NCBI GenBank assembly: GCA_964445765.1
Contig: CAYULD010000001.1
Location: forward strand, 516,537 to 580,536
Length of the DNA: 64,000 nt
Reading direction: 5' to 3'
Source: an uncultured Rickettsiales bacterium
GTDB taxonomy: Bacteria > Pseudomonadota > Alphaproteobacteria > Rickettsiales > UBA8987
Shown here: positions 2,937 to 64,000 of the stretch, one piece after another
How positions within the stretch are numbered: position 1 is the stretch's first letter
How the letters are laid out: every line of letters starts with the position of its first letter
Program-made: the position numbers and the translations under genes
The notes under the pieces: generated by a model
What the model was told of the DNA's origin: nothing
The model's database searches: none
What the model saw: the letters and a program-made list of their open reading frames with translations, nothing else

Positions 2937-3053
2937 GTCTGGCAGCGACTTACTTTCCCATGACTTAAGACATAGTATCATCAGCGTGTGAGGTCTTAAC
3001 TTCTGAGTTCGGGATGGGATCAGGTGTGTCCCCTCAGCTATAACCACCAGACA
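2937..3053 (-). rRNA. rrf: 5S ribosomal RNA
   Basis: The reverse complement reads TGTCTGGTGGTTATAGCTGAGGGGACACACCTGATCCCATCCCGAACTCAGAAGTTAAG...CGCTGCCAGACT. This is collinear with bacterial 5S (CCGAACTCAGAAGTGAAAC core) and the terminal helix pairs. Confidence 0.9.
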
Positions 3054-3186: not shown

Positions 3187-5989
<2,803 letters not shown>

Positions 5990-9878: not shown

Positions 9879-10265
9879 TTATATGGCTTCTGCAAGAGAA
9901 GAATAGAGTTCAATTTCTTCTTCAGCAAGTAATTTCTCTAAATCATTTTGAGAGTGTTTTAAGCGTATTTTTGCGTGCTCTAACTTATCAACTGCAAATT
10001 CTTTTGTTGTATTAGAAAGATCAAAAGCCTCACTAGCAAGAACTGAGCATTCTGCTTGATTAACTTCTGCAAAGCCACCGGCTACAAAAAATTTTTTTAC
10101 TGAATTATTACCCTCAATAATACCAACAACGCCGTTTTTTAAGGTTGAAATAAGCGGTGCGTGATCAGCTAAAACGCCAAATTCGCCAGCTTCACCCGGC
10201 AAAGTTGCCTGTGCAACCTCACCTGTATATATTAACTTTCCGGGGGTAGTAATTTCTAGTTTCAT
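9879..10265 (-). CDS. atpC: F1 ATP synthase subunit epsilon
   Basis: 128-aa ORF downstream of atpD. The N-terminal beta-sandwich pattern (LEITTPGKLIYTGEVAQATLPGEAGEFGVLADHAPLIS) is typical of epsilon. Confidence 0.9.
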   Translation of the reverse strand: MKLEITTPGKLIYTGEVAQATLPGEAGEFGVLADHAPLISTLKNGVVGIIEGNNSVKKFFVAGGFAEVNQAECSVLASEAFDLSNTTKEFAVDKLEHAKIRLKHSQNDLEKLLAEEEIELYSSLAEAI

Positions 10266-10267
10266 AA

Positions 10268-10360
10268 TAGGTTCTAGGGTTTAGGTTTCTGGGGGGGTAG
10301 GATAAGAGATTTTAGTCAGAGATACTCCCCTAACACCTAATCCCTAGACCCTAACCCCTT
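10268..10360. repeat. Heptad-array palindromic element (atpD|atpC spacer)
   Basis: The left arm is TAGGTTC TAGGGTT TAGGTTT... and the right arm is CCCCTAA CACCTAA TCCCTAG ACCCTAA CCCCTTA. The arms are inverted and imperfect, and the element fills the whole spacer. Confidence 0.7.
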
Positions 10361-10363
10361 AAA

Positions 10364-11797
<1,434 letters not shown>

Positions 11798-11798
11798 T

Positions 11799-11890
11799 TA
11801 GGTTCTAGGTGCTAGGTTCTAGGTGTTAGGGGTTTGCTTTTATAAAAATAAAAACACCCTAAATCCTAGAACCTAGCACCTAGCACCTAA
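11799..11890. repeat. Heptad-array palindromic element (atpG|atpD spacer)
   Basis: Five TAGGKKY heptads (11799-11833), a 21-nt AT loop, then five inverse heptads (11855-11890). The arms are complementary at 30 of 35 positions, and the last unit contains the atpG TAG stop. Confidence 0.8.
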
Positions 11891-12792
11891 AGTGCTTCCG
11901 CCCCTGAAATAATTTCAATCAGCTCTTTAGTAATATTCGCTTGGCGGGTGCGGTTATATTGCAAACTTAATTTATTAATCATCTCACCAGCGTTTTTAGT
12001 GGCGTTGTCCATAGCAGTCATTCTTGCACCTTGCTCAGAAGCCGAATTTTCAAGAAGAGAAGTAAATATTTGAACTGAAATATTTTTAGGTAAAAGCGTT
12101 TTCAAGATAGATTCTTCATCAGGCTCATATTCATAAACTGATTTAGAATTATCTTTATTATTATCATTGGCTTCTACTTCAGAAAGTTGCGACGGTATAA
12201 GTGACTTTGGCGTTACAATTTGCACCAAAGGATTAACAAATTTTGAATAAATAATTTCCGCTGAGTCAATTTCACCCTTTTCAAATAAATCTATAACAAT
12301 TTTGCCAATTTCATCTGCTTCAGAAAATTCAGTTTGCTTGCCTTTCATTGCATTAACAGAAAAAATTATATCCCTGCTGTAAAGAGATTTAAGAACATCC
12401 CTAGCCTTTTTGCCAATAGTAATAATTTTAACTTGCTTACCTTGTGATTTTAATTTCTCAATTTTTGCTTTACTTGCCTTAATTAAGGAGCCGTTAAAAT
12501 TGCCACATAAGCCCCTATCTGAGCTTGTAACTATAAGCAAGATTTTCTCATTTATAACATTACCTTCTTTATCAATTATTCCTTTTAGAATTTCTGGCAA
12601 TTCATTTTCTTGCATTGAGCCTGCAAGGTTAGATATTATTTGTTGAATTTTTCTTGCATAAGGCCTTGTATCTTCCGCACGCTCTTGCATTCTGCGGAGT
12701 TTTGAAGCCGCAACCATTTTCATCGCTTTAGTAATCTTGCGAGTATTTTTAACTGAACCGATACGATTTTTTAAGGCTTTTAAACTAGGCAT
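11887..12792 (-). CDS. atpG: F1 ATP synthase subunit gamma
   Basis: N-terminus is MPSLKALKNRIGSVKNTRKITKAMKMVAASKLRR and C-terminus is NRTRQANITKELIEIISGAEAL. Confidence 0.95.
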   Translation of the reverse strand: MPSLKALKNRIGSVKNTRKITKAMKMVAASKLRRMQERAEDTRPYARKIQQIISNLAGSMQENELPEILKGIIDKEGNVINEKILLIVTSSDRGLCGNFNGSLIKASKAKIEKLKSQGKQVKIITIGKKARDVLKSLYSRDIIFSVNAMKGKQTEFSEADEIGKIVIDLFEKGEIDSAEIIYSKFVNPLVQIVTPKSLIPSQLSEVEANDNNKDNSKSVYEYEPDEESILKTLLPKNISVQIFTSLLENSASEQGARMTAMDNATKNAGEMINKLSLQYNRTRQANITKELIEIISGAEAL

Positions 12793-12811
12793 AAAAATTA
12801 TATTAAGATAA

Positions 12812-12839
12812 CTAGATTACTTGATAACTGGATTACTAG
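12812..12839. repeat. Left 28-bp inverted repeat of the four-helix-bundle cassette
   Basis: CTAGATTACTTGATAACTGGATTACTAG matches the reverse complement of 13215-13242 at 23 of 28 positions (core GATAACTGGAT). Confidence 0.65.
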
Positions 12840-13218
12840 AATTTAAGTTTTCAATTAGCCTACTCATCATTTTTGATATTTTTAAATAATCATTTTTAAA
12901 TTTAACATGTTCACCTTGATTTAAATAACCAAGATCAAAACAGAAATCTAACCAAAGTTCCGTTTCCTTTGCAGAAGCTATAGATATTGTAAAATATCTT
13001 CTAAATTCAGCTTTGGAAAATCTTTGCTTTGCAAAACCCTCCACAATATTAGCACAAATACCCTTTGAAGACCTTCTTAACTGAGAAGCAATCTCATACT
13101 GCTCAGCTTTAGGGAATTTTTGAGTTATTTTGTGTAATTCTAAAGCAGAGGAATAAGAAAGTTTGTAAATTTCTAAGTCCTGTGCCTCTTTTACAAATAC
13201 CCCATAACTAAATTCCAG
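12817..13218 (-). CDS. Four-helix-bundle protein (23S rRNA intervening-sequence protein / Avd-like family); no canonical start codon
   Basis: The track ORF (GTG at 13044) starts mid-domain. The frame stays open upstream to 13218, giving LEFSYGVFVKEAQDLEIYKLSYSSALELHKITQKFPKAEQYEIASQLRRSSKGICANIVEGFAKQRFSKAEFRRYFTISIASAKETELWLDFCFDLGYL... This matches the family over its full length, but there is no in-frame ATG/GTG/TTG before 13044 (only CTG at 13216-13218 and ATT codons). Confidence 0.6.
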   Translation of the reverse strand: MEFSYGVFVKEAQDLEIYKLSYSSALELHKITQKFPKAEQYEIASQLRRSSKGICANIVEGFAKQRFSKAEFRRYFTISIASAKETELWLDFCFDLGYLNQGEHVKFKNDYLKISKMMSRLIENLNSSNPVIK

Positions 13219-13242
13219 TCATCCAGTTATCCAATCATCTAG
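13215..13242. repeat. Right 28-bp inverted repeat of the four-helix-bundle cassette
   Basis: CCAGTCATCCAGTTATCCAATCATCTAG is the inverted partner of 12812-12839. Confidence 0.65.
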
Positions 13243-13259
13243 TAATCTGCTATCACTGA

Positions 13260-14792
13260 TTACCCAACAAAAACCTTAACAAAATCACCAATTATTTGAT
13301 GTAATTTTTTATCAGTTTCATCAGAGATTTTTTCTTCTGTTCTAATTGCCCTAAGAACATCAGCGTGTTTTGTGTGGAAGTGGCTTAATAGCTCTCTCTC
13401 AAATCTAGTAACATCTTTAATCGCAACTTTATCCAAATAACCCTTAACACCTGAGAATATAGAGATAATCTGCTCTTCAACTTGAAGTGGGGAATATTGA
13501 GGTTGCTTTAACAATTCTGTTAATCTTTGACCTCTAGCAATTAATTTTTGTGTAGTTGCATCTAAATCTGAACCAAACTGAGCAAAAGCCTCCATCTCAC
13601 GGAATTGCGCCAACTCTAATTTTGCAGTTCCTGCAACTTGTTTCATCGCCTTAATTTGTGCCGCAGAACCAACACGAGATACAGATAAACCAACATTCAC
13701 CGCAGGGCGAACACCCTTGAAGAACAAGCCGGTTTCTAAGAATATTTGACCATCAGTAATTGAAATCACATTGGTAGGAATATAAGCTGATACATCACCC
13801 GCCTGTGTTTCAATAATAGGAAGAGCTGTAAGAGAGCCAGCACCCATCTCATCACTCATTTTTGCGGCACGCTCTAGTAAGCGAGAGTGAATATAAAACA
13901 CATCACCCGGATAAGCCTCACGCCCCGGTGGACGACGAAGTAATAATGACATCTGCCTATAAGCAACCGCTTGCTTAGATAAATCATCATAAACAATAAG
14001 TGCGTGCATTCCATTATCACGGAAATATTCACCCATTGCACAACCAGTATATGCCGCCAAGAATTGCAGTGGCGCTGGATCAGAGGCTGTTGCCGCCACA
14101 ATTATTGAATATTCCAATGCACCTTCTTCTTGAAGTTTTTTTACAATTTGAGCAACTGTTGAACGCTTTTGACCAATACAAACATAAATGCAGTATAATT
14201 TCTTCTTCTCATCACTACCAGCATTAATTGGCTTTTGGTTTAAGATTGTATCAATCGCAATAGCTGTTTTACCTGTTTGTCTATCGCCAATTATAAGCTC
14301 CCTCTGCCCTCTACCGATTGGGATTAAGCCATCAATAGATTTAATACCAGTTTGAACTGGCTCATGAACTGATTTACGAGCAATAATACCGGGTGCCTTT
14401 CTTTCAACTCTATATCTTTCTGAAGTGTTAATTGGCCCTTTGCCATCAATTGGGTTACCTAAAGCATCAACTACCCTGCCAAGCAATTCTTTACCCACTG
14501 GAACATCAACAATTTTGCCAGTTCTTTTAACCGAATCACCTTCTTTAATATCTCTATCATCACCAAAAATAACGATACCTACTGAGTTTTCCTCAAGGTT
14601 TAGAGCCATTCCTAAAATGCCGTTTGAAAACTCTACAAGCTCACCCGCTTTAACTTGATCAAGCCCGTGAACGATAGCTACACCATCACCAATTTTAATA
14701 ACTTGCCCAACTTCTTTAACTTCAGCTTCCTTAGAAAAATTAACAATATTCTGCTTTATTATAGAAGAAATTTCCGCTGCTTTTATAGCCAT
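13260..14792 (-). CDS. atpA: F1 ATP synthase subunit alpha
   Basis: Walker A is GDRQTGKT; other landmarks are [37 protein letters not shown]. Confidence 0.97.
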
Positions 14793-14815: not shown

Positions 14816-15370
14816 TTAATTACTTAAAACTTTTTTTAGCCCATTTAGCTTTTCGCTGATTGAATCATCAATTAAAGTTGAGCCAATTTGAATTTTTAGA
14901 CCACCTAAAATATTTTTATCACAAATATTTTCCGCTATAATAGTTTTATTTAATTTTTGCGAGAGAATATTTGTAATATTATTTAATAATTTTTCATCAA
15001 GCCTTTTTGCACTTGTAATAATCGCCTTAGATTTACCAGAAGATTTGTTGATTAAATCTTCAAAACTTTTAGTAATTTCACTCAACAAATTACCCCTTCT
15101 ACTTGCAATAACTAAAGATAAAAAATCCGCAAGATTTTTAGAAATATTAAGGCTAACACAAATTTCAGCTATTGTCTTAGCAATAGTTTTTTTAGATATA
15201 GCTTGATTAGTGATAAAATCAGATAATTCACAAGAAGATGCAACTGCATCATTAAATTTTTTCAATTCATTAAAAGCATTTTCAGAACTGCCATTTGCTA
15301 GGCAAATTTCAAAAAAAGCCTGAGCGTATCTTTTCGCAAGAGTTGAATTTTCTGTGATATTAGAAGCCAT
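14816..15370 (-). CDS. atpH: F1 ATP synthase subunit delta (OSCP)
   Basis: 184-aa ORF directly upstream of atpA. It starts ...AKRYAQAFFE and has a C-terminal pattern (GGLKIQIGSTLIDDSI) typical of OSCP/delta. Confidence 0.85.
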   Translation of the reverse strand: MASNITENSTLAKRYAQAFFEICLANGSSENAFNELKKFNDAVASSCELSDFITNQAISKKTIAKTIAEICVSLNISKNLADFLSLVIASRRGNLLSEITKSFEDLINKSSGKSKAIITSAKRLDEKLLNNITNILSQKLNKTIIAENICDKNILGGLKIQIGSTLIDDSISEKLNGLKKVLSN

Positions 15371-16975: not shown

Positions 16976-17140
16976 TAGTATTTCAAAAATATAATGTCTC
17001 CAAAATCACCACTCCAGTTTTATAAGGGGAGAGGCTGAAAGATAAATTCTTTCAGGGTGAGGGGATCGGGTTTATTAAGCCCTCACCCCAGCCCTCTCCC
17101 AGAGGGAGAGGGGGAATATCAATAAATTTTTGAAATACTA
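16976..17140. mobile_element. MITE-like structured repeat with perfect 15-bp terminal inverted repeats
   Basis: TIRs are TAGTATTTCAAAAAT (16976-16990) and ATTTTTGAAATACTA (17126-17140). The interior holds three GC-rich hairpins (CTGAAAG/CTTTCAG, GGGTGAGGG/CCCTCACCC, CCCTCTCCC-AGA-GGGAGAGGG) with no coding capacity. Confidence 0.6.
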
Positions 17141-17202
17141 AAGCAGCTAATTGTAAGAAGTTAGAATAAATAAAAACTACCATACTAACTACTAACTACC
17201 TT

Positions 17203-19032
17203 CTAACCCACTTCACCAACTTTTTTACCACCTAGATAACCTTGTAAAGCCTTACTAACCCTAGCATCAGCAAAATCAGTTGCGGTTTTATCTAGCTTAG
17301 CAATTAAGGAGTGAATTAATTCTCTATCTTCACCATCACAAGCAAGTTGCAATTCCTTAATACAATTTTCAATAGTGATTTTGTAATTTTTTTCAATTAA
17401 ATTTTCATCTTCACTTAACGCAGATTTAATTGTTTTTATAACTATATCCGCTTCAATCTTTGCTTCTAGAAGCAGCCTTTCAAATATATCCCTCTCAGCA
17501 TCCATAATACTTGCGAGGAGCATCTTTTCCATTTCCTCATAATTTAAGCCGTAAGATGGGCGAACTTCAATTTCAGCTTTGGTGCCGGTTTTTTCTTCAA
17601 TCGCTGAAACGCTAAGAATACCATCTGCATCTAATGCAAAAGTTACCTCAATAACGGCAGTGCCAGCTGGTTGTGGTGGAATATTTTTAAGATCAAAACA
17701 AGCAAGGCTTCTGCAATTTTTAGCAAGCTCCCTTTCACCTTGCAGAATATGAATTTTCATTGCGGTTTGACCATCTTCATAAGTGGTAAATTTCTGCTTT
17801 ACCCTTGCTGGAATTGGCGTATTTCTTGAAATTAAAACCTCCATTAAACCGCCATAAGTTTCAAGCCCTAGTGAAAGTGGCGTTACATCAAGCAATAAAG
17901 AATTTGAACCTTTAGTTAATGCTTCAGCTTGAATTGCCGCCCCAAGTGCCACTACTTGATCAGGGTTAATATCAGTTAATGGTTTTTTACCAGAGAGCTT
18001 TTCAACCTCTTTCTGGACAAGTGGAATTCTTGTAGAGCCACCAACCATAATAACGCCATCTAACTCAGCAGGTTTAATTCTAGCATCTTTAAGCACTGAT
18101 GAAAAAATAGAGATGGTTTTATCAATAATTGGCTTAATTATTTCTTCAAATTTAGTGCGAGTTATTTCAATTTTATTATTATCAATTTCTAAAATTGTTT
18201 TATCGCTTAGTGATAAATCTTCCTTAGCTTTTTTGAGAATATTTTTTAATTGTTGATTATTAATTGTAATATTTTTAGAATTATTCTTAACCATTTCAAC
18301 TAAAGCTAAATCAATATCATCACCACCTAAATGAGTATCACCACCAGTTGCGATAACTCTAAAAACACCCATTTGCATTTGCAAAATTGAGACATCAAAA
18401 GTGCCACCACCAAAATCATAAACCGCATAAAGCCCCTCAGATTGTTTATCTAAACCGTAAGCAAGAGCGGCGGCGGTTGGCTCATTAATAAGCCTCAAAA
18501 CTTCAAGCCCTGCGAGCTTTGCAGCATCTTTAGTTGCCTGCCTTTGTGCATCATTAAAATATGCGGGAACTGTTATAACTGCTTTATGAATATGCCTGCC
18601 AAGCACTTCATCAGCGTGATTTTTAACCGCTTTTAGAATTTCAGACGAAGCAGAAATTGGGTTAAATATTTTATCACCAAGCCTAAAATTTATAATTTTA
18701 TCTGAGGTTTCTTGAACAATTTCAATTCCATAAGCACTAAGATTTTCATCTGCCACATCTTGAATAGATTTTCCAATCAGCCTTTTAATAGAAGAAACAG
18801 ATTTTATGGTTGAAGAAGTTTTTTCACCAATATTTATAATATTTCTTTCATTTATATTTATAACCGAAGGTATAATAAAACTGCCATATTTATCGCATAT
18901 AACACTTGGCTTTTCATCAGATGAAATGGCAGCTAGAGAATTTGTAGTTCCCAGATCAATCCCGATTGCAATCCCCATTTCATTTTCGTGAGGTAACGGC
19001 GTTTGACCCGGTTCATGTATTTGTATTAACAT
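17203..19032 (-). CDS. hscA: Fe-S cluster assembly chaperone HscA (Hsp70 family)
   Basis: Contains IHEPG...[21 protein letters not shown] and VGGSTRIP. Confidence 0.95.
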
Positions 19033-19048
19033 TTTTTTGTAATAATTT

Positions 19049-19102
19049 TGTCATCTTGAGCAAAGCGAAAGATCTAGATTCTTCGCTTTGCTCAGAATGA
19101 CA
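19049..19102. repeat. TGTCAT...ATGACA palindromic element (hscB|hscA spacer)
   Basis: TGTCATCTTGAGCAAAGCGAAAGATCTAGATTCTTCGCTTTGCTCAGAATGACA is a near-perfect hairpin centred on AGATCTAGAT. Confidence 0.8.
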
Positions 19103-19129
19103 ACAAAGCAAATTGCAAATGGCTAACTA

Positions 19130-19612
19130 CTAACCACTAAATACTACCTTGGTTAAATACCTCAATCTAGTAACTTGCATTGAAGCGTTCTCATAGTCTG
19201 ATTTTTCAAAAAACTCTACAAAAGATTTCTTACTTTCTTCAATTTTATTTTCAACCTCTTGAAAGATTTTCTCTTTCTCTTTTTCATCCGCATCAAAAAG
19301 TTTTTCCCTAATTTCTATTTGTTCTAAAAGCAAATTTTGAGAGGGCTTAAAGCTATTATTAACCTCTTTATTAACTCTAAAACCTTTTAATTCAAGCAGA
19401 TGTTCTGCCCTTAATAAATCATCATTAAGCACTTTATAAGCCTCATTAATATCAGCACTAATTTTTACAGATTTAATTTTTTCATCTTCAGAAGAATTTA
19501 TAAATTTATCTGGGTGAAATTTTGCCTGAAGCTCCAAATATTTTTTATAAAGAGATTTTTTATCAAGGTTATAATTTTCATTCAGAGAAAATATTTGAAA
19601 GTAGTTGAGCAT
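19130..19612 (-). CDS. hscB: Fe-S cluster co-chaperone HscB (J-domain)
   Basis: J-domain with HPD (YLELQAKFHPDKF), positioned between iscA and hscA. Confidence 0.85.
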   Translation of the reverse strand: MLNYFQIFSLNENYNLDKKSLYKKYLELQAKFHPDKFINSSEDEKIKSVKISADINEAYKVLNDDLLRAEHLLELKGFRVNKEVNNSFKPSQNLLLEQIEIREKLFDADEKEKEKIFQEVENKIEESKKSFVEFFEKSDYENASMQVTRLRYLTKVVFSG

Positions 19613-20430: not shown

Positions 20431-20763
20431 CTAAACATGGAAACTTTCACCGCAACCGCATTTGCCCTTTTCGTTAGGGTTGATGAATACAAACCCTGAT
20501 TTCATTTTTTCTTCAACATAATCCATTTGCGTGCCGATTAAATATAAAACCGCTTTTGGATCAATAATAACTTTAACGCCTTTATCTTCAACAACATCTT
20601 CAAATTTCTTAACATCATCAGCATATTCAACAACATATGCAAGCCCTGAGCAACCACCTTTACGAACACCAACACGAATACCTTCAGATTGCTTGCCCCT
20701 AGCCTCAAGCAAGTTCTTGATTCTATTTGCAGCATTTTCTGTAATTGTAATAGGTGCTTTCAT
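20431..20763 (-). CDS. iscA: Fe-S cluster insertion protein IscA (HesB family)
   Basis: Contains GGCSGLAY and the C-terminal CGCGESF. Confidence 0.9.
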   Translation of the reverse strand: MKAPITITENAANRIKNLLEARGKQSEGIRVGVRKGGCSGLAYVVEYADDVKKFEDVVEDKGVKVIIDPKAVLYLIGTQMDYVEEKMKSGFVFINPNEKGKCGCGESFHV

Positions 20764-20764
20764 A

Positions 20765-20872
20765 TTAGGTTTTAGGGGTTAGGTGTTAGGTGTTAGGTGC
20801 TAAGAATTAAAGAAAAATAGAAAAAAATTACTAAACCTTCCTAGAACCTAGCTCCTAGAACCTAGAACCTTA
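20765..20872. repeat. Heptad-array palindromic element (iscU|iscA spacer)
   Basis: The left arm is TAGGTTT TAGGGGT TAGGTGT TAGGTGT TAGGTGC. An A-rich loop follows, then the right arm CTAGAAC CTAGCTC CTAGAAC CTAGAAC. Confidence 0.75.
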
Positions 20873-20873
20873 A

Positions 20874-21257
20874 TTAATTCTCCTGTTTCTTTTTATAATC
20901 CTCAATGGCACTTTTTATTGCATCTTCAGCAAGCATTGAGCAGTGAATTTTAACTGGTGGCAAAGATAATTCTTGAGCAATTTGTGTATTTTTGATGGTG
21001 TAAGCATCATCAAGGCTTTTACCTTTTATCCATTCAGTTGCAAGTGATGAAGAAGCTATCGCAGAGCCACATCCAAAGGTTTTGAATTTAGCATCTCTAA
21101 TTACGCCGCTATCATCAACTTCAATTTGAAGTTTCATCACATCACCACAAGCTGGTGCACCAACTAAGCCAGTGCCAACATTTTTGCTATTTTCATCCAT
21201 ACGCCCAACATTTCTTGGGTTTTCGTAGTGATCAATTACTTTTTCGCCGTAAGCCAT
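20874..21257 (-). CDS. iscU: Fe-S cluster assembly scaffold IscU
   Basis: Contains GAPACGDVMKLQI, FKTFGCGSAIASSS and HCSMLAEDAI. Confidence 0.93.
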   Translation of the reverse strand: MAYGEKVIDHYENPRNVGRMDENSKNVGTGLVGAPACGDVMKLQIEVDDSGVIRDAKFKTFGCGSAIASSSLATEWIKGKSLDDAYTIKNTQIAQELSLPPVKIHCSMLAEDAIKSAIEDYKKKQEN

Positions 21258-21288: not shown

Positions 21289-21414
21289 TGCCATTTCGCA
21301 CGAAGTGAGAAATCTGGTTGAAATATATTCTTTCTAGATTTCTCGCTTCGCTCAAAATGACACTAGTGGATACTCCTATAATTTTTTCTTACTGAAAAAA
21401 TTCGGGGTATGACA
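21289..21414. repeat. Two abutting palindromic elements upstream of iscU
   Basis: 21289-21362 (TGCCATTTCGCACGAAGTGAGAAATCT...AGATTTCTCGCTTCGCTCAAAATGACA) is a diverged member of the 19049 family. 21365-21414 (...CCTATAATTTTTTCTTACTGAAAAAATTCGGGGTATGACA) is an inverted homologue of hairpin 1 of the 19637 element. Confidence 0.65.
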
Positions 21415-21486
21415 CTATTTCTAATCACTATCACTAATACTTGCCACTTGCACTTGCCACTAATTATGTTAAAAGCCTTTTGCATT

Positions 21487-57079: not shown

Positions 57080-60000
57080 TTAGCTAAAAATTAGTATATC
57101 GTTTCCAAGTTTAGCAATCAACTCTGCTTCACTTACACCTTGGAAGGTCATTGATGAGTGATCGTCAACAACACCATTTCCATTTAAGTCTATTGCAAGA
57201 ACTGCATTACCATTTGCGTCTTGTGATATAATTGAGTTAGATTGCAATTTAGCAAGAGTATCAATAGCTTGACCATTAATGTTCAAGTTTTGAATCTCAA
57301 TTTTATCATCACCTTGTCCAAAATCTGTGATTATATCATCACCAGTTGCACCATTAGCAAAGTTAAATCTGAAAGTATCATTACCAAAATTTACCATATT
57401 GCCAACGCCTTGCGAATCAAGTGCATCTTGAAGAGCAGTAACGCTATTTATATCACCAGTAATGAAATATTCTTGACCATTAACAGTGAACTTATAAACA
57501 TCACCAGTTAGCATATCATTCTCTTTGCCACCTTCAATAATGTCATTGCCAAAGTTAAACTCATTATTATTGAGCCACATATCGTCATCATTAACAGATG
57601 CACCATCTCCTTGAGTAACATTTGTACCGTTACTATACTCAATAGCAATTTCTTTAGCATCACCGATAACGTGGTCATCACCTTTACCACCTTGGAGTAA
57701 ATCATTACCAAAGTTTAGAATGTTATTTTCAAACTTAACATTCGCACTTGCAGTTGCAATACCAGCTGAACATCCATCATCAACGATTGCAGTTGCATCA
57801 CCCTGCTGACCTTTAATAAGAAGCTTATTAACGTCACCAAGTGTTAAGTCATCACCATTACCTGCATTAACTTCGTCATTACCAAAAATAATTTCACCAT
57901 TAGACATTATAGCATCTGTATTTGCTTCCGCAAATTCATCGCCACCAAAAGTTACAGGGTTTGCTTTAGCATAAGCATTGCCAGATTTCACTGATAATGT
58001 TAGATCTTTAACATCACCAGAAACGATATTATCATCTTCATTTCCATTAACAATATCATCTTCATAATCTTTATTTGGCGTAACAGTTTCTGATGTACTA
58101 GAAACTTCCTCAGGATCATTTTCTGTTTCATCTTCAGTAACAAGCGTAATGCTATCATCATTAGGGTTGTTAGGGTTACCTGATGGATCACCAACTGTTG
58201 TAGTGTTATCATCTGGGTTATCTGAAACAACTAGCGTTACAGTTGCTGAATCTTCCTCACCACCCATACCACCATTTGGTGAATCTGTCGCTATATAATC
58301 AAATTCAACATTTGCTGTTTGGTTTGGCTCTAGTTTGAAGAATTCAGAATCAAATGAGATAGTTTTATTATCTGCAGCTACAACCAAGAATAATGGTAAT
58401 AAATTTCCAGCTATCATCACATCACCATTTTGCTGAACAGTCAAGCCTGTAGCATTATGAATACTTGGTGAAAGCCTGTTAATAGCATTTGGCCCCTTAA
58501 TTGTAATGCTTGTAATCGAGCCATTTTTAATAAATAACTCACCACCATCTGGGTCATTATCATTAGCAAGAACTTGAATAGTAGTAATTTTATTTTCAAA
58601 AATTGGAATATTATCATCAACCGCATTAATATCTCGGCCGACTATAATATTATTAGCAAGTGCAATATTACTTACATCTTTACCATCTGAAGCTTTATAT
58701 CTTAGCTGAATATTTATAGCTTGATCTGCTTGTAAATATTGGAATTGAGACTTATCAAAACTATATTCACCTGTATTCTGATTCAATGTAACATCAAACA
58801 CTTTACCAGCGTGAATACCAGCATTTGCACCAAATGTAACTTTATATAATGCAACCACCGCATTAACAGGCTGACCGTTTGTAGAATTTGTTCCACCACC
58901 TCCACCAACTAATTCAACAGTTACATCAACACCATCATAGCTGTGTATTCCAGTTTCAATAGAGTAAGTTAGCGGATCATTATCAGCATCGGTAGCTTGT
59001 AACTTGAATGTTAAGCTATTTGCTTGTGCCGTATCATTCTCATCAGTAAACGAATTACCATTCCAAGTTCCCACAATTGAACTGGTAATTGCATCTTCAT
59101 CTTCTACATTTGTAGTATCTTGAGCAACTGGTTTATTATTATTGTTAGTATCTTCTTTAATATTAATGGTTACCATACCAGAATCTTGCTCACCAAGATT
59201 ATTTGGATTATCACCATCAATTTTATAGTCAAAAGTGATAGTTGTTACTGGTAAGTTAGGTTGTAATTCAACATCACCATTTGTTTTTACAACTGCAACT
59301 AAACTTGCTCCATTATATAATTCAAAACCGTTATTTGTATTAACAACTGTTAGATCTACCGCCCCAAGCTTAGGGTTACTAACTTCAATTATCTCTAATG
59401 GGTGATCATTATCATCATTAACATCATTAGAAACTATATTCCCAATATTGCCTGAATTTCCAACAATCACATCAATGTTGTCATCATTAGCCATAGGGTT
59501 ATCACCTAATATTCTAACCTTCATATTTGTTGAAATAGAAGATGAGCCATCAGATACTAATACTGGTATTGTTAAATCTGCAAATTCATCTTTTAGTAAA
59601 TATTGAACATCCGCTTTATCCACTGTGATATGCGGTTTTCCATTAATGAAACTGAATGTTAAATCAATTGGATGACCAGCAATTCCATTATAAGTTAATG
59701 TTTGTGGTATATTATTATTTGCAATGTTAACACCATTAATAGTATATTTTAATGCTGTTAATGCAGTATCAGGATCAGTAACTTTAATTTCAAATGCTAA
59801 AGTTTGGTTTAATCCGTCATCTTTATCTCCAACTAAACCACTATTATCTTTTGCATTTTCATCATCTACATAATCCATTGCACTGAAAACTGGAGGTTTT
59901 TTACCACCTGTGCAAAGACCACAAGGCTCAACAATAATAGTAACATTGGCACTATCTTGCTCACCAACTAAATCCCCATTATCTTTTCCATCAACGGTGT

Positions 60001-63000
60001 ATGAGAATGTGATTGTTCCTTGAGCACTACCATTATATGAAACCGTACCATCTTTAGCAACATTTGCTATAACAACACCATTCATTAATAAATTGAATGA
60101 GCCATTAGGAATTTTGACAGAAACAAGATCAATATTTCCATTAAACTTAGCATTTTCAACTTTAATTACCTCTAGAGCATCTCCGTCTGGATCAATATCA
60201 ACTCCATTTCCATTATCTCCAGTAATAATATTGCCAATTACACCAAAGCTTGTAGTTTTGATATTTAAAAGGTCATCAGTAGCATTTGGAATACCACCAT
60301 GAATTGAAATTAAGACTGTTCCGTTAGCTGAAACACCATTTACATCTGTAACAGTGTAGTCAATACTTATTGCTTCAATTTGACCTTGTGATAGCCACTG
60401 CAACTCTTCAGTTACTAAATTAATTGTTCCATCATTATTGTTAATTATGGAGTAAACCATACCATTAACTGTAACTGTAGCAGGAACAGTATAAGTAAGA
60501 GGGCCATTATTGCTAGATGCTGGAAGAACAAACTTTAATTCACCATTAACACCTATTGAATCATTTGGATTAACAGCTTTTAAGCCATCTTCATCATCAG
60601 CATATTTTGTAACACCAAATGGGGTTTCAGGACCAGAATAGAACTTAACAATTACCTCTGCAGTATCTTCTTCGCCTGAGCTATTCGGCTGATTTGGAAT
60701 TAAATTATTTGGCAACCCATCAACTTTATAAGTTAATTTAAGATCACCGCCCGGGCCACCATTCCTAGTTATCGTGCCATCTGCATTAACTGTAGCAACT
60801 AAATCATTGCCAAGTTTTAATTGATAAGCACCATTTACCAATTCAACTGCAAGTGCCTGACCAGCAATTGATGCGTTTGTAACTGAGATAATTTCTAAAG
60901 AATCACCATCTGGGTCATTGTCATTAGCTAGAATACTTGTGGTAGATTGACCAATTAAATATTCATTATTTGTGAAATTATCATCATTAGCAACAACACC
61001 CACACCATCAATTGTTATTGTGATATCACTCTCCGCACTTGCTCCACTCGGATCCTCAACCTGATAATCAAACTTGAATGTTACACTCTCATTCTCCTTC
61101 AAGTCTTGGAACTCAGCAGGGTCAAATACCGCATAACCTAAACCATTTATAACCTCTACACTTATTCCTATCGTCCTTGTTGTTCCATCAGGAAACACCA
61201 CTAACACTGATGCTGGCGCACTATATATCAACGGATCTCCATTAGGATCACTCGCAGGCAACAAGAATGCTAACTTACCTGCCCCCTGATTATCTCCATC
61301 ATCATTCGATACTCCTATTATTCCATCCTCATCATCCCTCACCTTCGTCACTCCCTTCTCTGGCACCTCAGGTGGATTGTTACCTCCATGTAAACATACA
61401 ACTACATTCGCACTCGCCTGCTCACCTAAACTCGTCGCAACACCAGGCAATGAATCAGCTGTATATGCAAATGTAAATTCATTAGCATTAAACACACCTA
61501 AATTCTTCAACTTACCATCCGCTTGCAATATCGCAAACTCCTTATTATCAAAGAAGAATGAAAATGTCCCATCAGGATTAGCAACAACTTGTGCTGCATT
61601 TCCATCTAAAAATGCATTTGTAACCGTGATCAACTGGTCAACCGCATCTCCATCTGCATCACTATCATTATCAAACACACTCTTAATTGATGTCTGACCC
61701 GCACCTATTATGTCGTTTGTCCAATTATCAAACAATGCCACAGGCGATACACCATCAATTGTTATTGTGATATCACTCTCCGCACTTGCTCCACTCGGAT
61801 CCTCAACCTGATAATCAAACTTGAATGTTACACTCTCATTCTCCTTCAAGTCTTGGAACTCAGCAGGGTCAAATACCGCATAACCTAAACCATTTATAAC
61901 CTCTACACTTATTCCTATCGTCCTTGTTGTTCCATCAGGAAACACCACTAACACTGATGCTGGCGCACTATATATCAACGGATCTCCATTAGGATCACTC
62001 GCAGGCAACAAGAATGCTAACTTACCTGCCCCCTGATTATCTCCATCATCATTCGATACTCCTATTATTCCATCCTCATCATCCCTCACCTTCGTCACTC
62101 CCTTCTCTGGCACCTCAGGTGGGTCATTAGGGTTATCATTGCTATTACCAACTATTCCTATTGTTGCTTTCGCATCCGCACTAGTTAAACCATTAGAATC
62201 TGTCACATTATACTTCAATACAAATTCTATCGCTTCTTTGTCATTTAAAAACTGCATATCTGCCGTTCTAAACGCAAACTCCTGACCTCCATTATGCACT
62301 AACTCAAACACCCTACCAGCATACGCTCCAGAAGTTATCTCATAAGAATAAACTCCAGCTACCGCTGTCGGCGACACCGTAACATCCATTCCATCAACAA
62401 TATAAGAACCAGTAACTATCTTATATACCACAGGAATATTATTCGTTACTACATCACTAAACTTAAACCTTAAATCTGTAAGATCATTATTTATATCCTC
62501 ATTCTTATCTGCATATTGCGTGCCTCCAGGCGTTACACCAACTATCCCTCCTGTATCTATATCATCCTCATCATCCGCCACCACTATATTATCATTCAAT
62601 ATTACCGGCGGATTACCCTTATCATTGCTATTACCAACTATTCCTATTGTTGCTTTCGCATCCGCACTAGTTAAACCATTAGAATCTGTCACATTATACT
62701 TCAATACAAATTCTATCGCTTCTTTGTCATTTAAAAACTGCATATCTGCCGTTCTAAACGCAAACTCCTGACCTCCATTATGCACTAACTCAAACACCCT
62801 ACCAGCATACGCTCCAGAAGTTATCTCATAAGAATAAACTCCAGCTACCGCTGTCGGCGACACCGTAACATCCATTCCATCAACAATATAAGAACCAGTA
62901 ACTATCTTATATACCACAGGAATATTATTCGTTACTACATCACTAAACTTAAACCTTAAATCTGTAAGATCATTATTTATATCCTCATTCTTATCTGCAT

Positions 63001-64000
63001 ATTGCGTGCCTCCAGGCGTTACACCAACTATCCCTCCTGTATCTATATCATCCTCATCATCCGCCACCACTATATTATCATTCAATATTACCGGCGGATT
63101 ACCAAATCCACAATTAATTGTAACTTCTGCAATATCTTGCTCACCATTATCAGCCAAACCATTCAAGAATTGATTAGGATTATTATTAATATCTTTTGAA
63201 CCATCACTTATATAGCTAAATTTAACTTGCCCCGGTATTGCTCCATTATAAGTAACTACGCCAGTTTCACCATTAATTTCTATTGTCATACCATTTCCTG
63301 TTAGTGTAAAAATATTTACACCATTAACAATAGTAGTATTAACTGTCAAATTAATTGGGGCACCACTTACTACGGTTCCATTATTGTTAACTTGAGGAAT
63401 GAATACAGCGTTAATAACTTCCCTAACATCTACATCATCACCGTCTGTATCAGTGTCATTTATAAGAATATTGCCAACTATTTGTGCTTGACCATTTGCA
63501 ATAGCATTAAGGTTATCATCAAGAGCAGTAACTGAAGTTCCAACAATATACATATTTGCGTCAACAGATTTACTCAATTTACCACCTTGTAAAATCGCTG
63601 CATATTTTAAGCCAAACTTAAATACTTCATCTGCTTTTAATGCTTGTAGCTCAGATTCAACAAGGGTAATTGTTGCATTTTGTGCATCAAAAATAATTGT
63701 GAATTCTTTTCCTTCAAGAGGCTTGAACTGATTTCCTTGAGGAACAGATTCAAGCTTATACTTAAATTGATTAGCTGGTGAGCCCACAGGCTGATATAAT
63801 CTTACTTCAATTCCATCAACAAAGTAAGTTGGATTTCCAGCAACTAATGTGTAACCCTGAACCGGAATGGAAGCATTACCCTTATCAAGTTGGAACATTA
63901 GAGTATTTGGGTTAACCTGAGAAGCATCTTGATCAACATAAGTTAAACCATTTCCATAATATACACCAGATGGTGGGTTTGCATTTCCAGCGTTTAATAT
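57080..64000 (-). CDS. Giant repetitive Ca-binding adhesin-like protein (VCBS/cadherin-like modules plus C-terminal RTX-like repeats); N-terminus outside window
   Basis: The frame stays open upstream of the M at 63898 to the window edge (...ILNAGNANPPSGVYYGNGLTYVDQDASQVNPNTL-MFQLDKG). Repeated ~100-aa modules carry NDxDxDGD motifs (LINDTDTDGDDV, FDNDSDADGDAV, LANDNDPDGDSL, LANDNDPDGGEL). The C-terminus has GNDxxxGGxGxD-type repeats (GNDEVNAGNGDDLTLGD, GNDLLQGGKGDDHVIGD, GNDIIEGGKENDMLTGD). Confidence 0.85.
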   Translation of the reverse strand: MLNAGNANPPSGVYYGNGLTYVDQDASQVNPNTLMFQLDKGNASIPVQGYTLVAGNPTYFVDGIEVRLYQPVGSPANQFKYKLESVPQGNQFKPLEGKEFTIIFDAQNATITLVESELQALKADEVFKFGLKYAAILQGGKLSKSVDANMYIVGTSVTALDDNLNAIANGQAQIVGNILINDTDTDGDDVDVREVINAVFIPQVNNNGTVVSGAPINLTVNTTIVNGVNIFTLTGNGMTIEINGETGVVTYNGAIPGQVKFSYISDGSKDINNNPNQFLNGLADNGEQDIAEVTINCGFGNPPVILNDNIVVADDEDDIDTGGIVGVTPGGTQYADKNEDINNDLTDLRFKFSDVVTNNIPVVYKIVTGSYIVDGMDVTVSPTAVAGVYSYEITSGAYAGRVFELVHNGGQEFAFRTADMQFLNDKEAIEFVLKYNVTDSNGLTSADAKATIGIVGNSNDKGNPPVILNDNIVVADDEDDIDTGGIVGVTPGGTQYADKNEDINNDLTDLRFKFSDVVTNNIPVVYKIVTGSYIVDGMDVTVSPTAVAGVYSYEITSGAYAGRVFELVHNGGQEFAFRTADMQFLNDKEAIEFVLKYNVTDSNGLTSADAKATIGIVGNSNDNPNDPPEVPEKGVTKVRDDEDGIIGVSNDDGDNQGAGKLAFLLPASDPNGDPLIYSAPASVLVVFPDGTTRTIGISVEVINGLGYAVFDPAEFQDLKENESVTFKFDYQVEDPSGASAESDITITIDGVSPVALFDNWTNDIIGAGQTSIKSVFDNDSDADGDAVDQLITVTNAFLDGNAAQVVANPDGTFSFFFDNKEFAILQADGKLKNLGVFNANEFTFAYTADSLPGVATSLGEQASANVVVCLHGGNNPPEVPEKGVTKVRDDEDGIIGVSNDDGDNQGAGKLAFLLPASDPNGDPLIYSAPASVLVVFPDGTTRTIGISVEVINGLGYAVFDPAEFQDLKENESVTFKFDYQVEDPSGASAESDITITIDGVGVVANDDNFTNNEYLIGQSTTSILANDNDPDGDSLEIISVTNASIAGQALAVELVNGAYQLKLGNDLVATVNADGTITRNGGPGGDLKLTYKVDGLPNNLIPNQPNSSGEEDTAEVIVKFYSGPETPFGVTKYADDEDGLKAVNPNDSIGVNGELKFVLPASSNNGPLTYTVPATVTVNGMVYSIINNNDGTINLVTEELQWLSQGQIEAISIDYTVTDVNGVSANGTVLISIHGGIPNATDDLLNIKTTSFGVIGNIITGDNGNGVDIDPDGDALEVIKVENAKFNGNIDLVSVKIPNGSFNLLMNGVVIANVAKDGTVSYNGSAQGTITFSYTVDGKDNGDLVGEQDSANVTIIVEPCGLCTGGKKPPVFSAMDYVDDENAKDNSGLVGDKDDGLNQTLAFEIKVTDPDTALTALKYTINGVNIANNNIPQTLTYNGIAGHPIDLTFSFINGKPHITVDKADVQYLLKDEFADLTIPVLVSDGSSSISTNMKVRILGDNPMANDDNIDVIVGNSGNIGNIVSNDVNDDNDHPLEIIEVSNPKLGAVDLTVVNTNNGFELYNGASLVAVVKTNGDVELQPNLPVTTITFDYKIDGDNPNNLGEQDSGMVTINIKEDTNNNNKPVAQDTTNVEDEDAITSSIVGTWNGNSFTDENDTAQANSLTFKLQATDADNDPLTYSIETGIHSYDGVDVTVELVGGGGGTNSTNGQPVNAVVALYKVTFGANAGIHAGKVFDVTLNQNTGEYSFDKSQFQYLQADQAINIQLRYKASDGKDVSNIALANNIIVGRDINAVDDNIPIFENKITTIQVLANDNDPDGGELFIKNGSITSITIKGPNAINRLSPSIHNATGLTVQQNGDVMIAGNLLPLFLVVAADNKTISFDSEFFKLEPNQTANVEFDYIATDSPNGGMGGEEDSATVTLVVSDNPDDNTTTVGDPSGNPNNPNDDSITLVTEDETENDPEEVSSTSETVTPNKDYEDDIVNGNEDDNIVSGDVKDLTLSVKSGNAYAKANPVTFGGDEFAEANTDAIMSNGEIIFGNDEVNAGNGDDLTLGDVNKLLIKGQQGDATAIVDDGCSAGIATASANVKFENNILNFGNDLLQGGKGDDHVIGDAKEIAIEYSNGTNVTQGDGASVNDDDMWLNNNEFNFGNDIIEGGKENDMLTGDVYKFTVNGQEYFITGDINSVTALQDALDSQGVGNMVNFGNDTFRFNFANGATGDDIITDFGQGDDKIEIQNLNINGQAIDTLAKLQSNSIISQDANGNAVLAIDLNGNGVVDDHSSMTFQGVSEAELIAKLGNDILIFS
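61002..61375. repeat. 374-bp perfect direct repeat, copy 1 (adhesin gene)
   Basis: Identical by eye to 61749-62122. It encodes PPEVPEKGVTKVRDDEDG...ESDITITIDGV. The copies are 747 bp (249 codons) apart. Confidence 0.85.
61749..62122. repeat. 374-bp perfect direct repeat, copy 2 (adhesin gene)
   Basis: Identical by eye to 61002-61375. Confidence 0.85.
62133..63103. repeat. Perfect tandem duplication, 2 x 485 bp at a 486-bp period (162 aa), inside the adhesin gene
   Basis: 62133-62617 and 62619-63103 read identically base for base by eye. The unit encodes GNPPVILNDNIVVADDEDDIDTGG...ATIGIVGNSNDK. Confidence 0.85.

Follow-up and report, generated by a model that had tools for sequence, protein, structure and literature searches.

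A candidate intervening-sequence-type cassette in the atpA-atpG spacer of an uncultured Rickettsiales bacterium

Described elements of similar design and the present locus

For some 35 years intervening sequences (IVSs) have been regarded as a peculiarity of 23S rRNA; their origin, their mobility and the function of their protein have stayed unexplained. The element considered here lies outside rRNA, in a stretch of 64,000 nucleotides from an uncultured Rickettsiales bacterium (assembly GCA_964445765.1, contig CAYULD010000001.1, positions 516,537 to 580,536; hereafter the window), where two inverted-repeat arms and an open reading frame (ORF) for a four-helix-bundle protein occupy the spacer between atpA and atpG. 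It is probably an IVS-type cassette that has settled in this spacer, is transcribed together with the operon, is closed by a stem which RNase III likely cuts, is transferable as a unit and has recently lost the start of its gene.

The closest described systems are the 23S rRNA IVSs with an S23p / PF05635 ORF (Leptospira, Coxiella burnetii, Brucella and Xanthomonas-type; PMC4990558), whose proteins belong to the same family as that of the cassette, with 40-58% identity. The stem of the Coxiella IVS contains tandem heptamers (GACAGAT), and RNase III cuts it at the first heptamer repeat (PMC4990558). The cassette shares with these IVSs the succession of arm, ATG within a few nucleotides, ORF of about 120 codons, stop and arm, as well as a similar loop length, arms built of short tandem units, an ORF in the sense orientation and decay of the ORF near its start. 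It differs from them in standing between two atp genes and not in helix 25 or 45, in having 8-nt instead of 7-nt units, and in that excision would here split an mRNA rather than fragment an rRNA. Since it is located outside rRNA, the cassette is not a member of the 23S rRNA IVSs; in all other respects that were tested it agrees with them in kind.

Intercistronic stems processed by RNase III are known from the early RNA of phage T7 and from rpsO-pnp; they are short, local and fixed in their operons, and their cleavage uncouples the flanking messages. The cassette also has a long, perfect or near-perfect stem between cistrons, but this stem is long-range, closes a coding loop and is variably present among close relatives. 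Short inverted repeats in transcribed spacers are further represented by the repetitive extragenic palindromic and bacterial interspersed mosaic elements (REP/BIME), the enterobacterial repetitive intergenic consensus (ERIC), the Rickettsia palindromic elements and the miniature inverted-repeat transposable elements (MITEs), all of them with a conserved sequence, many copies per genome and no ORF. The cassette resembles these as an inverted-repeat element of a transcribed operon spacer, predicted to fold in mRNA, whereas the cassette loci each have a unit sequence of their own, follow a common tandem-unit design and enclose a protein gene. The marks of a MITE or of an insertion sequence (IS-type element) were not observed, there being no second copy in the window, one family member on the 687-kb contig and no target duplication.

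Vioque reportedly described, in 1997, heptamers of the short tandemly repeated repetitive (STRR) type in RNase P RNA. In cyanobacteria, STRR heptamers form hairpins between cistrons (hupS-hupL), and their function was described as unknown; for the hupS-hupL hairpins, made of 7-bp repeats, a role in stabilising the transcripts or in coupling translation was proposed (PMC2670836). STRR hairpins consist of tandem 7-nt units and occur in intercistronic spacers and structured RNAs; three ORF-less hairpins of the window resemble them in architecture, as do the cassette arms with their 8-nt units. The STRR hairpins were described in heterocystous cyanobacteria and without a linked ORF; the present host is not a cyanobacterium but a Rickettsiales-like alphaproteobacterium, and one of its hairpins carries an ORF.

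The Avd protein of diversity-generating retroelements (DGRs; Bordetella phage BPP-1, structures 4DWL and 8UB7) has the same four-helix-bundle fold, with a template modelling (TM) score of about 0.8, and a weak profile relation; it differs in its sequence, which is 10-14% identical, and the cassette protein reached 17.7 bits with the DGR Avd equivalog NF033474 against a cut-off of 80. A DGR context was considered and rejected, as no reverse transcriptase, template or variable repeat stands beside the cassette, which has atp genes as its direct neighbours on both sides (for a reverse transcriptase, only this neighbourhood was considered).

Protein, arms and start region of the cassette

The cassette ORF encodes a complete four-helix-bundle domain. 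Its translation matched PF05635 (23S_rRNA_IVP) with E = 5.9e-30 and 104.1 bits (cut-off 33.8) over residues 13-119 and model positions 1-105 of 106, and TIGR02436 with E = 1.5e-28 and 99.2 bits (cut-off 24) from residue 17 onwards, over model positions 1-108 of 109. These matches cover nearly the full models, including residues upstream of the only in-frame GTG, and agree with a first reading made from the letters alone (the sequence-only reading), according to which the whole open frame resembles this family. A search of the PDB with phmmer retrieved 2rld (2e-8) and 2gsc (5e-8). The AlphaFold (AF2) model, calculated from 14 aligned sequences, had a mean predicted local distance difference test (pLDDT) value of 90.5 and placed helices at residues 16-32, 43-64, 69-95 and 101-126. 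The best Foldseek match was XCC0516 (2GSC; target-normalised TM-score 0.90-0.94, root-mean-square deviation 1.1-1.3), followed by BT_0352 (2RLD) and then by the Avd structures. All of the family-invariant residues are kept in the 133 codons, and no internal stop occurs.

The atpA-atpG spacer measures 467 nt, and the cassette fills it from 11 nt past the atpA stop to 13 nt ahead of the atpG ATG (Table 1). The loop between the arms has 363 nt and carries the ORF in sense to atpA and atpG, and the ORF runs into the 3' arm with its final 9 codons and its stop. Of the 40 arm positions 36 are paired, through 34 Watson-Crick and 2 G-U pairs, and the arms form the longest inverted repeat in the window. 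An inverted repeat with 23 of 28 matching positions, the core GATAACTGGAT and CTAG at its tips had been recognised in the sequence-only reading, with coordinates correct to within 1 nt; the arms are in fact longer. The 40-nt arms gave a duplex energy of -40.8 kcal/mol, and the 60-nt flanks containing them one of -43.8, compared with -15.7 +/- 3.4 for mononucleotide shuffles of these flanks, and none of 1500 pairs of genomic segments at the same spacing reached the observed value. The long-range stem supposed earlier was also obtained on folding: both the minimum free energy (MFE) and the centroid structures of positions 12770-13290 (521 nt) close the cassette with the arm stem (z = -4.8). Further pairing is possible outside the arms, between the 3' end of atpA and the region where atpG starts (12765-12781 with 13270-13286; 17 nt, 76% complementary). 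The predicted MFE and centroid stems extend through the flanks, so that cutting or melting of the stem may be needed to free the atpG start.

No Rfam family matched the cassette at the gathering thresholds or at E <= 1, and neither a promoter-like nor a terminator-like site was found on its sense strand. Co-transcription with the operon is suggested because the cassette lacks a promoter-like site of its own, lies in sense orientation and has relatives only in transcribed spacers. With a GC content of 33.8% in the window, the GC content at third codon positions (GC3) of the cassette ORF is 0.22 and equals that of the host genes, which argues that the cassette is not a fresh import. AtpG of the window is 90% identical to AtpG of a metagenome-assembled genome labelled 'Rickettsiales bacterium'; together with the GC content and a 23S-5S rRNA pair that has no 16S gene in the window, this points to a Rickettsiales-like alphaproteobacterium as the host. 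An assembly artefact or chimeric join is scarcely credible: the assembly is of the metagenome type, but the identical cassette sequence occurs in a separate Logan assembly (SRR12997672), its composition fits the host and the same architecture recurs in dozens of independent genomes.

When the ORF was tested as an intact, translatable gene it failed, there being no in-frame ATG, GTG or TTG ahead of codon 59. The sole canonical in-frame start is the GTG of that codon, and, according to the model, a product begun there would lack half the bundle. That this GTG is the only such start and lies in mid-domain, behind 58 stop-free codons, had been noted from the letters; the frame check and the position in helix 2 agree, and the chance of such a run at this composition was computed as 0.009. 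An ATG is located 3 nt past the 5' arm, one base out of the ORF frame, and opens a mini-ORF of 4 codons and a stop (ATG GGG TAT TTG TAA). One G added to the GGGG run gives MGVFVKEAQDLE (longer reading MGVFVKEAQDLEIYK...), in frame with the whole domain, and the restored N-terminus is like those of intact homologues in length and character, e.g. MAYVKSIYDLDVF and MFVQDVEDLEVF. Where a locus has bracketing arms and an in-frame ATG close to the arm, the ATG follows the 5' arm at a median distance of 3.5 nt (16 operon copies) or 5.5 nt (44 rRNA copies). The simplest reading of the sequence is that the start was lost by a very recent 1-nt deletion in the G run after the ancestral ATG, and the ORF is probably a young pseudogene that has kept its hairpin. 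The same GGGG is seen in the Logan assembly of SRR12997672. Decay of IVS ORFs around the start is documented in Coxiella (PMC4990558), and a second decayed copy was found between pyrH and frr (L045).

Of the three explanations offered earlier for the missing start, very recent loss is favoured, in the form of a 1-nt frameshift after the ATG. Non-canonical initiation and coupling to atpA were rejected: the frame of atpA differs, TGA 13221-13219 closes the ORF frame, and the frameshifted ATG fits better and explains the missing start, so that non-canonical initiation is not needed. The annotated 75-aa ORF is then to be regarded as a truncated artefact of a frameshifted 129-codon gene, which should serve as a warning in annotation.

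It is quite unlikely that the gene is still functional, its full-length protein being made through a -1 slip of tRNA-Gly on G_GGG after ATG 13205, or from CTG 13218, or from ATT 13170 (codon 17). This would account for 133 stop-free codons in a genome of 34% GC (the value of 0.009 applies to the 58 upstream codons alone), for the retention of all invariant residues and for the beginning of the TIGR02436 alignment at residue 17, where ATT 13170 falls, and the GGGG run permits exact re-pairing after a -1 slip. However, no slippery heptamer or downstream stimulator could be recognised, the mini-ORF stops after 4 codons, intact homologues start with a plain ATG at this spot, decay of such ORFs is on record for Coxiella and L045, and a very recent deletion accounts for the clean frame equally well.

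Table 1. Positions of the cassette, its parts and the neighbouring features in the window, and spacers that hold cassette copies outside rRNA
Feature	Position or locus	Strand	Remarks
Whole cassette	12806-13248	minus	443 nt; 5' arm, loop with ORF, 3' arm; within atpA-atpG spacer
5' arm	13209-13248	minus	five tandem 8-nt units, mRNA sense: AGATTACT AGATGATT GGATAACT GGATGACT GGAATTTA
3' arm	12806-12845	minus	five tandem 8-nt units, mRNA sense: TAAATTCT AGTAATCC AGTTATCA AGTAATCT AGTTATCT
Open frame	12817-13218	minus	133 sense codons (13218-12820) and stop TAA (12819-12817); upstream limit TGA 13221-13219; PF05635 / TIGR02436; first canonical in-frame start at codon 59
Out-of-frame ATG (13205-13203), G run (13203-13200) and mini-ORF	13191-13205	minus	putative ancestral start
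GTG start of annotated 75-aa ORF (P0001)	13042-13044	minus	inside predicted helix 2
atpH	14816-15370	minus	
atpA	13260-14792	minus	
atpG	11887-12792	minus	
atpD	10364-11785	minus	
atpC	9879-10265	minus	
ORF-less heptad hairpin, atpG-atpD spacer	11797-11891	minus	about 5 TAGGTNC units per arm
ORF-less heptad hairpin, atpD-atpC spacer	10268-10353	minus	TAGGGTT-type units
ORF-less heptad hairpin, iscU (20877-21257) - iscA (20434-20763)	20766-20870	minus	
Copy in atpA-atpG	window		
Copy in atpG-atpD	L002, L025, L054		
Copy downstream of atpD	L021		
Copy in sucC-sucD	L007, L055		
Copy in tolB-pal	L022; L098, L103-L107		L098 and L103-L107, Mesorhizobium
Copy in gatA-gatB	L101		
Copy in def-fmt	L008		
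Copy in pyrH-frr	L045		
Copy in rpsI-rpoZ	L050		
Copy in signal recognition particle (SRP) RNA (ffs)-dnaX	L003		
Copy upstream of recR	L080		
Copy in leuB-ilvA	L011		
Copy in thiolase-DUF35	L010		
Copy in other spacers	L012, L013, L067, L069, L100		

Relatives in 23S rRNA and in operon spacers

The survey comprised the 80 nearest relatives from a metagenome scan, which are 40-58% identical to the cassette protein and are biased toward the closest kin of this one protein; other searches outside this genome gave no homologue closer than 54% identity. Seventy of the 80 lie inside 23S rRNA, all 70 in the sense orientation, with 68 at one site (about position 1290 in the numbering of the L004 23S gene) and 2 at about 530-680, sites which we take to correspond to helix 45 and helix 25. 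Bracketing inverted repeats scoring >= 14 were present at 65 loci (60 rRNA and 5 non-rRNA) of the 69 with enough flank, compared with 2% of 196 shifted control positions. They accompany 60 of the 64 testable rRNA homologues, nearly all with 7-nt units, and the arms of the rRNA copies are almost always tandem heptads, e.g. GACAGAA and GTCAGGA. The loop length of the homologues is 358-444 nt. A copy on a plasmid of Azospirillum lipoferum is an ordinary 23S IVS. The supposition of the sequence-only reading that an IVS-like element resides in an mRNA operon is supported by these homologues, which are mostly 23S rRNA IVS ORFs of the same arm-ORF-arm layout and in a minority of cases stand in operon spacers.

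The window contains a 23S rRNA gene (3187-5988) that fits the full Rfam model over 2802 nt with no insertion; this gene lacks an IVS, even though the atp operon, at a distance of 7 kb, holds a cassette of the IVS type. A 5S gene is present at 2937-3051 and no 16S gene occurs anywhere in the window, as in a split rRNA operon.

The collection of loci outside rRNA numbers 22: the window itself, 10 from metagenomes, 8 from genomes and 3 reached by looking up proteins. In no fewer than 19 of them the cassette runs in the same direction as both neighbouring genes (Table 1). Nearly all of the copies are bracketed by inverted arms of this tandem-unit design, with 8-nt units in about half, the window included, e.g. 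GATGAATC, AGAGATTT and GAATTGAA. The operon copies do not form one clade, and an rRNA copy is the nearest relative of L021 (70%), L069 (70%) and L008 (63%). The protein of a sucC-sucD copy (L055) is 77% identical to that of a Mesorhizobium tolB-pal copy, and when L055 was aligned with two tolB-pal loci (L098 and L022) the homology spanned the 5' arm, the ORF and the 3' arm and ended at the outer arm edges, which indicates that arms and ORF together are the transferred unit. Thirteen of the 15 operon copies examined are intact with an ATG, and dN/dS (nonsynonymous to synonymous divergence) between two tolB-pal copies was 0.06 at dS 1.1; judged from these sequences, the protein is under purifying selection in intact copies. 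The tolB-[four-helix-bundle]-pal cassette is conserved across Mesorhizobium species, in which the order and sequence of the arm units vary while the duplex stays at -39 to -46 kcal/mol. As far as sequence comparison can tell, IVS-type cassettes are not specific to rRNA, and many housekeeping operons host them. The literature searched, which covered few subscription journals, did not mention any mRNA operon with a four-helix-bundle or IVS cassette, a result to be taken as provisional.

Two of the operon copies have particular surroundings. Between gatA and gatB (L101, 4357-4400) the start called for gatB falls within the cassette, and the called gene crosses the 3' arm; the call may be too long, or else GatB has an N-terminal extension translated from the arm. 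In L067 (3440-3520) the copy is directly followed by a tRNA-like gene (recognised by eye), after which comes a gene for a phage-type integrase. Its carrier may be an integrative island, and transfer could take place by this route among others. A phage vector was also considered and set aside, as the patterns used to search the collection of viral contigs retrieved no relatives.

These comparisons lead to the following model. The cassette would be transcribed as part of the atpHAGDC message, and in that RNA the two 40-nt arms would form a stem of about 40 bp closing the loop with the ORF. By analogy with the homologous cassettes of 23S rRNA, the stem would most likely be cut by RNase III, releasing the cassette RNA and splitting the message into atpHA and atpGDC. 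Intact copies could have their protein made either from the precursor or from the excised RNA, and arms and ORF would act as one transferable unit living in heavily transcribed RNAs, such as rRNA and housekeeping operons. Avd pentamers are described as working in a ribonucleoprotein with structured RNA (10.1101/2023.10.23.563531). Because relatives of this fold act in that manner, it is a reasonable hypothesis that the cassette protein binds its own arms.

Several observations weigh against this model. RNase III cleavage at this locus is an analogy with rRNA, an effect on atp expression and the way in which the cassette moves are likewise inferred, and no rnc gene was found within the 64-kb window. 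The contig has a single copy, giving no sign that the cassette moves inside this genome, and no target-site duplication is visible at the flanks TAATCAGTGATAGC and TAATATAATTTTT. The mismatches between arms comprised 52 G-U and 40 A-C in the rRNA copies and 12 and 13, respectively, in the operon copies; this wobble test gave no excess of G-U over A-C and no sign of selection on the sense RNA, and arm complementarity could be kept at the DNA level. As to the lost start, look-up of the exact protein sequence gave no record of an intact GGGGG allele, and the frameshift could in principle be an assembly error, as both assemblies may share reads.

Some of these points would suit a DNA transposon or MITE whose terminal inverted repeats are the arms and which is moved in trans by an unlinked transposase, the RNA stem being incidental. 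Arms and ORF do move jointly between unrelated sites, the arm mismatches show no G-U over A-C bias, and ORF-less derivatives with the same arms exist. We nevertheless hold this explanation to be quite unlikely. No transposase was found near the cassette, and neither a target duplication nor a second copy was seen; the arm sequence differs by locus while the tandem-unit design is kept, unlike ends recognised by a transposase; the sense orientation of all 70 rRNA copies and of no fewer than 19 of the 22 copies outside rRNA would not be needed by an element of DNA only; and the homologous stem of Coxiella is a proven RNase III substrate.

If the IVS-type reading is right, the occurrence of arm-ORF-arm cassettes in mRNA operons (atp, sucCD, tolB-pal, gatCAB, def-fmt, pyrH-frr) makes the element look more like a tenant, or a parasite, of strongly transcribed RNA in general than like a feature of rRNA, and its conservation in culturable Mesorhizobium makes the question testable there. 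For annotation, it would explain short 'hypothetical' ORFs and large hairpins that break otherwise tight operons.

The junction in related genomes and the ORF-less hairpins

The sequence-only reading had recommended a look at the orthologous junction and at other copies of the gene. Neither the ORF nor the arms have a second copy within the window, and the NCBI contig with the ORF (687,327 bp) holds only the one family member. At the junction, L015 (AtpG 78% identical) has an atpA-atpG gap of 3 nt (TAA TAA ATG). In the closest relative, L014 (AtpG 90%), a spacer of 104 nt consists of an ORF-less hairpin with about 6 heptad units per arm (GTTNATC / GATNRAC) and -47 kcal/mol, and in L017 (AtpG 83%) a spacer of 129 nt contains a small GC hairpin and neither a cassette nor a heptad hairpin. 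The cassette thus appears as a lineage-specific occupant of the junction. Homology of the L014 junction hairpin with the arms of the window was tested and rejected (alignment score 58 compared with 60 +/- 5.5 in shuffles); position and architecture are all they have in common. GC-rich hairpins CCCTCTCCC...GGGAGAGGG, conspicuous in an AT-rich genome, occur at window positions 17078-17125, and a similar one (L017 2018-2042) fills the atpA-atpG spacer of L017.

The other atp spacers also differ from genome to genome. The atpG-atpD spacer contains a heptad hairpin in the window (arms of 35 nt with 91% complementarity; the 110-nt spacer folds at -58.6 kcal/mol), an ORF for a 138-aa lipoprotein-like protein in L014 (3019-3435) and one for a 98-aa membrane-like protein in L017 (2969-3265), the latter two giving no Pfam match. 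The hairpin of the atpD-atpC spacer is built from TAGGGTT-type units in the window, GATGCTTC in L014 and GAAGTTG in L015. In this lineage, insertions seem to enter the atp spacers with unusual ease.

An alternative is that the hairpin is an atp intercistronic element selected by the host, setting the alpha-to-gamma ratio through processing, stabilisation or translational coupling, with the ORF as a passenger. A strong hairpin does occur in every atp spacer except atpH-atpA, in this genome and its relatives, stabilising or coupling roles are those proposed for the 7-bp-repeat hairpins of cyanobacterial hupS-hupL (PMC2670836), and base pairing between the end of atpA and the region around the atpG start forms part of the predicted fold. 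The hairpin is not conserved, however, the spacer being empty or holding a different unit or an unrelated ORF in genomes that are 78-90% identical in AtpG; L015 manages with its 3-nt junction, and the presence of the same cassette in rRNA would be left unexplained. We consider this alternative unlikely and retain the IVS-type cassette as the preferred reading.

The three heptad hairpins of the window have no sequence similarity to the cassette arms, and against Rfam a heptad hairpin gave only sub-threshold matches to generic miRNA hairpins. Within this lineage the link between cassette and hairpins is one of design and location only. Of the weak link to neighbouring heptad hairpins suggested in the sequence-only reading, the architectural part was strengthened by the L014 junction and by arms shared in Inquilinaceae, and sequence similarity within the window was not found. 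In the rRNA operons of Inquilinaceae (L004-L006) the arms of the ORF-bearing IVS and those of a 112-nt ORF-less IVS at a second 23S site are identical at 29 of 33 positions, and further hairpins of the same unit family stand in the 16S-tRNA, 23S-5S and 5S-tRNA spacers.

Relatives of the cassette protein are carried by 29 plasmids, mostly of Nostocales. Inverted tandem heptamers flank 6 of the 8 cyanobacterial plasmid copies inspected, of the GCAGGGA type and, in Geminocystis, of the GGGAAAA type; one inspected copy had no visible arms. The copy on a plasmid of Pseudanabaena galeata (L111), between cas6 and cas4, has direct heptamer arrays, with AAAGCTA upstream (1420-1500) and AAAGCCA downstream (1860-1960), and is an exception to the rule of inverted arms.

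It is tempting to speculate that the STRR hairpins are related to the four-helix-bundle cassettes, a link not found in the literature searched, and the operon cassettes may be kin to tandem-heptamer hairpins in general. In its broadest form, which is possible but doubtful, the proposal unites in one class the rRNA IVSs with an ORF, the short rRNA IVSs without one, the STRR hairpins, and the hairpins of heptad or octad units from operon spacers of this genome and its relatives. The autonomous form would carry the four-helix-bundle gene, whose pentameric, Avd-like product would recognise 4-6 tandem arm units, and the ORF-less forms would be non-autonomous derivatives; the class as a whole would spread, across several phyla, among hairpin loops and spacers of rRNA, of other structured RNAs and of housekeeping operons. 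This would give a possible origin for the tandem-heptamer STRR hairpins, and, if it were true, the term 'rRNA intervening sequence' would name only the commonest landing site.

Some further repeats were observed in the window. Tandem heptad arrays (TACTAAC, CTAACTA, ACTTGCC / CACTAAT) occupy intergenic positions 17183-17207, 19123-19146 and 21413-21464 with no obvious inverted partner, and may be half-hairpins or decayed arms. A palindromic element, TGTCATYTTGAGCRAAGCGARAGATCT with its complement, is found at 19048-19103 and 21289-21362, both of them intergenic sites, with 3 arm matches compared with 0 expected; it is unrelated to the heptad hairpins. Finally, a perfect tandem duplication of 486 nt (62133-63103; 2.0 copies, 100% identity) lies inside an ORF of 2272 aa at 57080-63898.

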